From: Escherichia phage NC-A
Reading direction: 5' to 3' (one strand)
Sequence record: MK310182
Length of the DNA stretch: 39,536 nt
Positions 6,476-7,907 of the stretch are shown here, piece by piece. Under the pieces are notes generated by a model. That model saw nothing but the letters and a program-made list of their open reading frames with translations, was not told the DNA's origin and ran no database searches. Numbering within the stretch: the stretch's first letter is position 1; every line of letters starts with the position of its first letter. The position numbers were made by a program, and so were the translations under genes.

Positions 6476-7498
6476 ATGATGAACATTAAGACCAACCCGT
6501 TTAAAGCAACGTCCTTCGTAGAGTCTGCCGTTAAGAAGGCTCTGGATAACGCTGGGTATCTTATCGCTGACGTTAAATATGATGGTGTCCGTGGTAACAT
6601 CTGCGTAGACAATACCGCTAACGGTTGCTGGCTCTCTCGCGTATCTAAAACGATTCCGGCACTGGAGCACTTAAACGGTTTCGACGTTCGGTGGAAGCAT
6701 CTCCTGAATGATGACCGTTGTTTCTACAAAGATGGCTTTATGTTGGATGGCGAACTTATGGTCAAGGGAGTGGACTTTAACACGGGGTCCGGCCTACTAC
6801 GCACCAAATGGACTGACACTAAGAACCAAGAGTTCCATGAAGTGTTGTTCGTTGAGCCAGTACGTAAGAAAGAGAAGATACCGTTTCACCTGCACGCAAT
6901 GAAACTTCAAGTTAAACTTTATGCTGTACTACCGCTGCACATCGTAGAGTCTGGAGAAGACTGTGACATTATGACGCTGCTTATGCAGGAACACGTTAAG
7001 AATATGCTGCCTCTGCTACAGGAATACTACCCTGAAATAGAATGGCAAGCGGCTGAATCTTATGAGGTTTATGATATGGTCGAACTCCAGCAACTGTACG
7101 AGGCCAAGCGGGAAGAAGGACATGAGGGTCTCATTGTGAAAGACCCAATGTGCATCTACAAGCGCGGTAAGAAGTCCGGCTGGTGGAAACTCAAGCCTCT
7201 TGAGGAAGCTGACGGAATCATTCAAGGTGTAAACTGGGGAACAGAAGGACTTGCTAACGAAGGTAAGGTAATTGGGTTCAAGGTGCTTCTTGAGACTGGT
7301 CGTCTTGTCGATGCCAATAACATCTCTCGCGCCTTAATGGATGAATTTACAGCTAACGTTAAAGAACATGGCGAAGACTACTATAATGGCTGGGCTTGCC
7401 AGATTGGATTTATGGAGGTAACTAACGATGGGAGTCTCAGACATCCTTCATTCTCATGTTTCCGTGGAACAGAAGATAATCGCTGCGAAAAAATGTAA
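6476..7498 (+). CDS. 1.3: Gene 1.3 ATP-dependent DNA ligase (340 aa)
   Basis: MMNIKTNPFKA...KYDGVRG adenylation motif; SD GGAGA 8 nt upstream; track ORF starts at upstream ATG 6461 with no SD. Confidence 0.93.
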   Translation: MMNIKTNPFKATSFVESAVKKALDNAGYLIADVKYDGVRGNICVDNTANGCWLSRVSKTIPALEHLNGFDVRWKHLLNDDRCFYKDGFMLDGELMVKGVDFNTGSGLLRTKWTDTKNQEFHEVLFVEPVRKKEKIPFHLHAMKLQVKLYAVLPLHIVESGEDCDIMTLLMQEHVKNMLPLLQEYYPEIEWQAAESYEVYDMVELQQLYEAKREEGHEGLIVKDPMCIYKRGKKSGWWKLKPLEEADGIIQGVNWGTEGLANEGKVIGFKVLLETGRLVDANNISRALMDEFTANVKEHGEDYYNGWACQIGFMEVTNDGSLRHPSFSCFRGTEDNRCEKM

Positions 7499-7907
7499 AT
7501 ACAATCCGGCCAGTCCTTCGGGGCTGGTCTTTTTGCGTTTCGGTAAACCAGTTAAAATGGGAACTTTGCGCAAAGATGGTTATTGGTCTACTCAGCTTGG
7601 CAAGAAGAACGTACAGGTACACCGCATAGTTTGGGTGCTAAACTTTGGGTCTATACCCGCTGGTATGGAGATAGACCATATAAACAGGAATCCTAGCGAT
7701 AATCGGATAGAGAACCTTAGGCTAGTGACTAGATCACAGAATGGGTTTAACAGAAGAGTTCCTAAGCAGTCAAGAACCGGTGAGAGATACATCCACACTT
7801 GCTCCAAGACTGGTAGGTTTATAGTGCGGATTTCTGGTAAATCCTACGGCACATATGGTACTCTCGAAGAGGCTATAGCTGTGCGAGATGCTAATACGAC
7901 TCACTAA
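7428..7907 (+). CDS. HNH-AP2 family endonuclease-like protein (159 aa; alternative start 7557 gives 116 aa)
   Basis: HNH_3-type motif DGYW...VHRIVW...[24 protein letters not shown] then AP2-like C-terminus [42 protein letters not shown] 8 nt before ATG 7428; rare codons (AGG/AGA/ATA/CTA). Confidence 0.75.
   Translation: [159 protein letters not shown]
7508..7535 (+). terminator. Early (E. coli RNAP) intrinsic terminator TE
   Basis: GGCCAGTCC-TTCG-GGGCTGGTC hairpin followed by TTTTTGCGTTT; same architecture as the T7 TE element I recall (CTGGCTCACCTTCGGGTGGGCCTTTCTGCGTTT). Confidence 0.85.

Follow-up and report, generated by a model that had tools for sequence, protein, structure and literature searches.

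What is the open reading frame (ORF) that lies between the DNA ligase gene and the promoter phi1.5 of Escherichia phage NC-A, and how might such a gene be expressed and maintained when its start falls inside the ligase gene, its stop inside the promoter and, a point overlooked in a preliminary description of this DNA, the early terminator TE within its coding sequence? The window analyzed here is the whole stretch of 39,536 nucleotides (nt) in sequence record MK310182. It is a complete T7-like genome with T7 gene order and 14 T7-type promoters (14 matches to the promoter pattern, against 0 expected by chance), and its ligase region is 82–87% identical to those of known Teseptimaviruses. Our answer, which draws on sequence comparison and a predicted structure, is that the ORF is probably an intact, free-standing homing endonuclease gene of the I-HmuI-like HNH_3 (H-N-N) class with an AP2-type tail, a new allele of the phiYeO3-12 gene 1.45 family, for which we propose a translation start, a mode of expression and a series of homing steps below.

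The family itself is already known. The annotation of gene 1.45 of phiYeO3-12 (CAB63597, 'homologous to HNH endonuclease') dates from 2001, and the gene is arranged like that of the window, with a start 70 nt inside the ligase gene, a putative TE annotated within the ORF and a 3′ end that overlaps phi1.5. Because gene 1.45 had already been annotated with this identical overlap layout, the window gene is a new allele and not a discovery. The two proteins are 54.8% identical over residues 1–155 (E = 4e-42), and orthologues with 55–74% amino-acid identity are annotated in KP32 (gp9), Erwinia phage L1, Bas102, JeanTinguely and other phages. The following differences set the window apart: (i) its allele is of the L1/Berlinvirus/pEp_SNUABM_11 type (69–74%) in a Teseptimavirus backbone, whereas the closest HNH-bearing backbone relatives have the T3/KP32 type (62%) and (ii) its C-terminus, ANTTH, is set by a T7-type promoter, where that of the phiYeO3-12 counterpart is set by a T3-type promoter.

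The ORF and its predicted protein

The features on which the argument depends are the following.

6476–7498, + strand: DNA ligase gene (homologue of T7 gene 1.3), from the ORF list and from annotated ligases at the homologous position in relatives
7414–7419, + strand: Shine–Dalgarno (SD)-like GGAGGT, 8 nt before the HNH ATG, built from ligase codons ATG-GAG-GTA
7428–7907, + strand: HNH (H-N-N type)–AP2 endonuclease ORF of the phiYeO3-12 gene 1.45 family, 159 aa, ATG start
7428–7498, + strand: ligase-encoded leader of the HNH ORF, residues 1–24, without protein-level constraint in the HNH frame
7497–7613, + strand: N-terminal beta-strand domain, residues 24–62, homologous to the DNA-contacting N-terminal domain of I-HmuI
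7508–7540, + strand: early terminator TE, a 9-bp stem with a TTCG loop (7508–7529) followed by TTTTTGCGTTT, from the terminator scan
7614–7745, + strand: HNH_3 catalytic core, residues 63–106, with a predicted beta-beta-alpha-metal fold
7776–7898, + strand: predicted AP2/ERF-like DNA-binding tail, approximately residues 117–157, three strands and then a helix
7892–7914, + strand: T7-type class II promoter phi1.5, an exact match to TAATACGACTCACTAAAGGAGGT

As the preliminary description had it, the 159-residue ORF is real and extends from the ATG at 7428 to the TAA at 7905–7907, overlaps the ligase gene by 71 nt in a different frame (the ligase ORF stops at 7498), follows the GGAGGT listed above and ends within the exact phi1.5 sequence. 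The slot is likewise that of T7 gene 1.4, the HNH ORF sitting between TE and phi1.5. In T7 itself the ligase–phi1.5 interval contains the unrelated gene 1.4, and in phiA1122 and 13a, the latter with a ligase 91% identical in amino acids to that of the window, the interval is empty and TE directly adjoins phi1.5.

An HNH_3 signature had been claimed for the protein from inspection, and the profile match is strong: Pfam HNH_3 (PF13392) covers residues 63–106 with E = 1.2e-21 and 76.5 bits (cut-off 24.8). PHROG 99, 'HNH endonuclease', also matches (E = 1.6e-40), while NCBIfam has no family for the ligase-adjacent HNH protein or for the gp3.8-like protein considered below. The sole solved relative found by sequence is I-HmuI (1U3E), which phmmer aligns with residues 24–109 (E = 3.4e-4) at 35% identity over 86 columns; the alignment starts at residue 24 and takes in the N-terminal strands of I-HmuI. 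An AlphaFold model built from 89 homologues (predicted local distance difference test score, pLDDT, 88; predicted template modeling score, pTM, 0.72) points to the same enzyme, with I-HmuI (1u3e_M) as the sole significant match when the whole model is compared with the PDB by Foldseek (E = 5e-5, probability 1.00). The modeled core comprises strands 80–84 and 97–101 and helix 102–107, all with pLDDT above 90. Residues D83, H84, N96, L97, R98 and N108 are invariant among the 89 homologues and N105 is nearly so, and each of these is present in the window protein. The N-terminal family motif, F-x-Y-x-x-G-x-L-x-W, is also found in unrelated phages.

The AP2-like tail of the preliminary description is retained on evidence from the family and the model; a direct Pfam match is lacking. 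The only hit of Pfam AP2 (PF00847) to the window protein is at residues 48–75, away from the tail and below threshold (E = 0.011, 16.5 bits, cut-off 33.3), and the family profile was therefore used. Pfam AP2 matches at the position homologous to the window tail in 27 of the 89 homologues, and the tail profile matches solved AP2/ERF domains, namely WRI1 (5.4e-10), ERF096 (6.6e-5), AtERF1 (5.8e-4) and also TEM1. The model has strands at 122–124, 131–135 and 138–143 followed by a helix at 146–157; AP2 structures rank low in the whole-model Foldseek comparison because they cover the tail alone. Judged from sequence and model together, the window protein is, from residue 24 on, a conserved three-part nuclease, with a predicted beta domain, H-N-N core and AP2 tail.

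The gene might instead be on its way to becoming a pseudogene, a remnant in decay that yields no active product. Decayed copies do exist in relatives, and rare codons are abundant in the window gene: ATA, AGA and AGG are enriched, GC content is 45% compared with 48.8% for the genome, and the relative-codon score is -0.095, a value below which none of 724 130-codon windows resampled from the genes of the genome (0.103 +/- 0.056) falls. The atypical codon usage reported earlier is in fact the most atypical in the genome, tied with that of the gp3.8-like gene. The full-length frame is intact, however, with all invariant catalytic residues in place and a confident structure model, and the ratio of nonsynonymous to synonymous substitution rates (dN/dS) is about 0.1–0.15 even against a 95%-identical relative. 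Over codons 25–154, dN/dS is 0.09–0.17 against five relatives, compared with about 1 for codons 1–24, the part encoded by the ligase gene. This contrast argues that the body of the ORF is a functional protein and that the first ~23 residues are an unconstrained leader. We consider it highly improbable that the ORF is a pseudogene.

Translation most likely starts at ATG 7428, within the ligase gene and with an SD drawn from ligase codons, as judged from conservation of the frame and from homology near its 5′ end. Every one of the 13 HNH-bearing loci has the ATG and, after it, an open frame; among 76 distinct HNH-less loci the ATG is kept in 37 and the remainder have GAC-GG. Since homology to I-HmuI runs from residue 24 on, the start must lie upstream of that residue, and most homologues have no alternative start codon between the -70 ATG and about residue 65. 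A competing candidate is Met44 (ATG 7557), downstream of TE, which would make the upstream open frame fortuitous. Starting there would avoid both the terminator and the ligase overlap; the automatic gene caller picked this 116-aa version in the closest relative (P0003), and the annotators of CQ615 and vB_Yep_15 likewise called shorter ORFs. Against this, no SD is present upstream of 7557, the residue is not conserved (it is G, C or I in relatives), and residues 24–43, which align with the N-terminal strands of I-HmuI and with the family motif F-x-Y-x-x-G-x-L, would be left out. The general scarcity of start codons in this part of the homologues also argues against Met44. We regard it as quite unlikely to be the true start and have rejected it.

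The 3′ end is supplied by the downstream promoter. In the window, phi1.5 provides the last five HNH codons (ANTTH) and the stop; the T3-type promoter of phiYeO3-12 supplies AINPH and a stop, and the KP32 promoter supplies VIN and a stop. The downstream promoter of the Berlinvirus type (L011 and L174; ...CTCACTATGGAGG) has no TAA, so the HNH ORF continues through the promoter for nine more codons and its stop is provided by whatever sequence follows the cassette. On the sequences compared, both ends of the HNH ORF are made of resident sequence.

Distribution and allele history at the ligase slot

Is this gene a mobile element or a core gene of the T7 group? Comparison of the ligase–phi1.5 interval across the group finds the ORF far from universal. 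It is carried by 3 of 80 IMG/VR loci chosen by ligase alone, and ~85 GenBank phage records have a close homologue compared with 1265 that have a T7-type ligase (about 6%), these being raw record counts in which duplicates and kinship are included. Homologues in the same slot occur in at least six genera of the Studiervirinae (Teseptimavirus, Teetrevirus, Przondovirus, Berlinvirus, Elunavirus and Kayfunavirus). The best matches, at 69–75%, are in the Erwinia phages pEp_SNUABM_11 and L1 and in a Berlinvirus, and an environmental 40-kb contig has a 95%-identical copy in the same layout.

The HNH gene and its backbone have incongruent relationships. Bas102 has a ligase 91% identical to that of the window and an HNH protein only 62% identical, whereas L1 has a ligase of 55% and an HNH protein of 69% identity. 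Within the window, an allele replacement is seen as a divergent tract.

7421–7840, + strand: divergent allele tract (swapped cassette) relative to the closest HNH-bearing backbone relatives (the Bas102 group), from 60-nt identity bins

Nucleotide identity between the window and Bas102 is 85–97% in the flanks, falls to 70% in the bin 7421–7480 and to 47–62% across 7481–7840 (82% over the HNH motif), and is 97% again from 7841. Across the same 7421–7840 interval, the alleles of pEp_SNUABM_11, the Berlinvirus and L1 are 58–85% identical to the window, and the ligase-encoded leader tracks the HNH type rather than the backbone. In KP32, the first ~720 nt of the ligase gene are 85–97% identical to HNH-less Przondoviruses, but the last ~300 nt are only 58–73% identical to them and resemble phiYeO3-12 instead (78–88%), which marks a co-conversion tract; identity to the HNH-less Przondoviruses is back to 93–100% right after the promoter.

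Decay can be followed as well. Two Przondovirus contigs (L025 and L031, ~2526–2700) have a 293-bp internal deletion of a KP32-type HNH gene with both ORF ends kept, and a Teseptimavirus contig (L014, 2523–2670) has a scar of ~140 bp in which 5′ (KYKYD...) and 3′ (...VIAVRD) pieces are recognizable. No microhomology is evident by eye at the deletion boundaries of these three scars. We also note that in contig L091 (IMGVR_UViG_2706796247), which has the closest ligase by best-segment identity (90%), the tblastn match spans 1501–2519 (1019 nt) and the ligase-stop coordinate was placed at 2163 by script; as the match is not a multiple of three and is split across frames, a frameshift or assembly error is the likely cause.

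The comparative evidence that the HNH gene is mobile is strong, and we regard its mobility as well supported. The preliminary description had read the layout itself as the footprint of a mobile insertion. Mobility is borne out by distribution, incongruence between HNH gene and ligase, allele swap, co-conversion, scars and the atypical codon usage, but the SD and ATG do not contribute to that conclusion. They consist of conserved ligase codons (ATG-GAG-G and GAT-GG), and GGAGG is also present in HNH-less relatives. Both signals are by-products of the ligase sequence that are also seen in many phages without the gene, and so are in themselves no footprint of insertion.

Alternatively, the nuclease might have been domesticated and kept for phage benefit, through interference with co-infecting relatives or through nicking for replication or recombination, and would then not be a purely selfish homing element. 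Strong purifying selection and the single fixed slot held across at least six genera would be in keeping with such a role, and there are published precedents in which a homing endonuclease helps one phage compete with another in the same cell (PMC11620839). Against it, only ~6% of ligase-bearing phages have the gene, several lineages have deletion scars and alleles are swapped independently of the backbone. Distribution, scars and swaps are a better fit to gain, decay and loss than to retained benefit. The two readings are compatible, and we consider domestication an unlikely account of the locus.

For the homing gene that we favor, the following course of events can be envisaged. In a mixed infection, relatives without the HNH gene would be nicked or cut by the enzyme in their ligase-to-phi1.5 region, and recombinational repair would then give them a copy of the cassette and, along with it, of the ligase 3′ end. 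I-HmuI nicks DNA, its own intron-containing DNA included, and a nick turned into a break at replication is therefore as likely a beginning for the window enzyme as a double-strand cut.

The ligase 3′ ends do not point to a target. HNH-bearing alleles of the T3/KP32/Bas102 type share CGAGGAACTGAGGACAAT and T7 and 13a have CGTGGCACCGAGGACAAC, but the window and the Berlinvirus type differ again from both, and no target is therefore inferred. Among the ligase 3′ ends compared, no fixed difference between HNH-bearing and HNH-less phages that would mark a target or immunity site was found.

Several points weigh against an active homing gene at this locus, beginning with the redundancy of the record counts given above. 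The SD and ATG are imposed by ligase coding, and their presence alone is no proof of their use. As I-HmuI nicks filled DNA too, cleavage confined to empty sites cannot be assumed for the window enzyme. We found no nearly identical relative of the window without the HNH gene, and recent homing into the NC-A genome therefore cannot be demonstrated directly. Finally, we found no experimental work on gene 1.45, or on any ligase-adjacent HNH gene of the Studiervirinae, in the searchable literature.

The early terminator within the reading frame

TE occupies HNH codons 27–38, where the same nucleotides encode a conserved beta-hairpin or beta-turn (ASPSGLV). The hairpin has a fold energy of -19 kcal/mol (z = -2.7) and is homologous by position to the TE annotated in T7, 13a and phiYeO3-12. 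With the terminator at these codons, transcripts made by host RNA polymerase should end inside the HNH ORF, and full-length HNH message would be expected only from transcripts of the T7-type RNA polymerase that began at upstream class II promoters. A sigma-70-like site at 7451–7480, in the ligase/HNH overlap (9/12 match), was considered and rejected as being at chance level, with 1 such site found and 2.9 expected.

Three sequence types of the hairpin can be distinguished: (i) that of the window, L1 and Berlinvirus, (ii) that of Bas102, T3 and KP32 and (iii) that of the HNH-less T7/T3 type. The types differ by compensatory changes, such as G-C to C-G at stem positions 4 and 6, which alter the encoded residues (S/A, L/V) while the stem is kept, and the window hairpin has the strongest T-tract of the three. 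The same peptide, QASPSGLV, is also specified by gene 3.8A of Citrobacter phage CR44b, which resides elsewhere in the genome, but a clean hairpin or T-tract is lacking there. This argues that the terminator is a feature of the ligase slot that has been laid over the coding sequence.

Does the terminator belong to the slot alone, or could it travel with the cassette? In Przondoviruses, the hairpin is found only in genomes that have the HNH gene or its deletion scar. At HNH-less Przondovirus-like loci (L036–L083), the ligase TAA opens the next promoter (TAATTAGGTAGCACTATAGGAGACA), and no hairpin resembling a terminator comes after the ligase gene. In HNH-less T7, T3 and 13a, TE is ~72% identical to the HNH-type hairpin (counted from the alignment) and has the SPSG codons in the same frame. 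Because the Przondovirus hairpin tracks the gene or its scar, and because the SPSG frame is kept in the HNH-less TE, TE may travel with the cassette or descend from it. We therefore raise, as a tentative suggestion that we hold to be somewhat doubtful, that TE is part of the mobile unit and that the TE of HNH-less T7, T3 and 13a is perhaps the relic of an old cassette.

A further arrangement is seen in Escherichia phage JacobBurckhardt (L004, 1319–1880), in which the slot contains a third HNH lineage, only 41% identical. The coding hairpin at the 5′ end of this HNH gene is degenerate, and a perfect T7-type TE follows the HNH stop, so that the terminator region is present twice.

Related nuclease genes and the meaning of the locus

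The window protein can be compared with several known systems. I-HmuI (PDB 1U3E), an intron-encoded HNH nicking homing endonuclease of Bacillus phage SPO1, has the same N-terminal beta domain and H-N-N core, but it ends in helical and helix-turn-helix DNA-binding modules, whereas the window protein is free-standing and has an AP2-like end. The combination of H-N-N core and AP2 domain is known from the free-standing HNN–AP2 endonucleases of the Xanthomonas oryzae phages Xp10, OP1 and Xop411, which show the same pattern of gain, degeneration and loss (PMC2248197). Those genes are dispersed in siphovirus genomes, with no overlap with a ligase gene, terminator or promoter described for them.

CR44b gene 3.8A and related Kayfunavirus HNH genes are ~48–50% identical to the window protein from residue 24 on and share the motif QASPSGLV, but they lie in a slot just before the terminase gene and have no ligase-encoded leader. 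In CR44b (L175, 683–1120), gene 3.8A is 48% identical and is found between the spanin genes and the large terminase gene, overlapping both. The slot is also the site of a 397-bp HNH insertion/deletion polymorphism reported for Hafnia phage Ca (PMC8861465).

Two further genes of the window complete the comparison.

7922–8011, + strand: gene 1.5 homologue, 29 aa, the first gene downstream of the HNH gene, with gp1.5 annotated at the homologous position in relatives; its stop overlaps the phi1.6 promoter (8009–8031)
10659–11024, + strand: gp3.8-like second HNH_3 gene, 121 aa, HNH_3 E = 2.5e-12

The ligase-adjacent protein had been described as a diverged paralogue of gp3.8. Both do belong to HNH_3, but the relationship is confined to 54 aligned residues (39% identity, E = 1e-11) that take in the catalytic core and the first part of the tail, and T7 gp3.8 and the gp3.8-like protein of the window differ from the gene 1.45 family in having no N-terminal beta domain and in their locus. 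The gp3.8-like gene has the same codon score, -0.095, as the ligase-adjacent gene and is probably a second mobile nuclease. Its end lies inside a long ORF of the mechanical listing (10921–12699) that contains the primase/helicase gene. An ORF of 76 aa at 15883–16113, after the DNA polymerase gene in the slot of T7 gene 5.3, has the lowest GC content in the genome (40%) and a codon score of -0.068, with no Pfam match.

For annotation, the ORF is best called from 7428 and assigned to the gene 1.45 family as an HNH–AP2 homing endonuclease; it tends to be truncated or missed by gene callers and annotators. For phage engineering and the design of cocktails, the nuclease could bias recombination between co-infecting T7-like phages. 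More generally, the locus offers a compact and well-sampled view of the life cycle of a homing gene in the T7 group, from invasion through allele replacement, co-conversion of the 3′ end of an essential gene and internal deletion to loss, in which the selfish gene relies on resident signals for its start and stop and for the terminator embedded in it.

If TE is part of the cassette, homing would spread or replace the host-polymerase terminator and the ligase C-terminus alongside the nuclease, and the terminator would also gate the nuclease, which would be encoded by phage-polymerase transcripts only. Homing would then move the regulatory element that separates early from middle transcription. 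The locus is of interest mainly because a terminator sits within an ORF and because gain, swap and decay form so clear a series.

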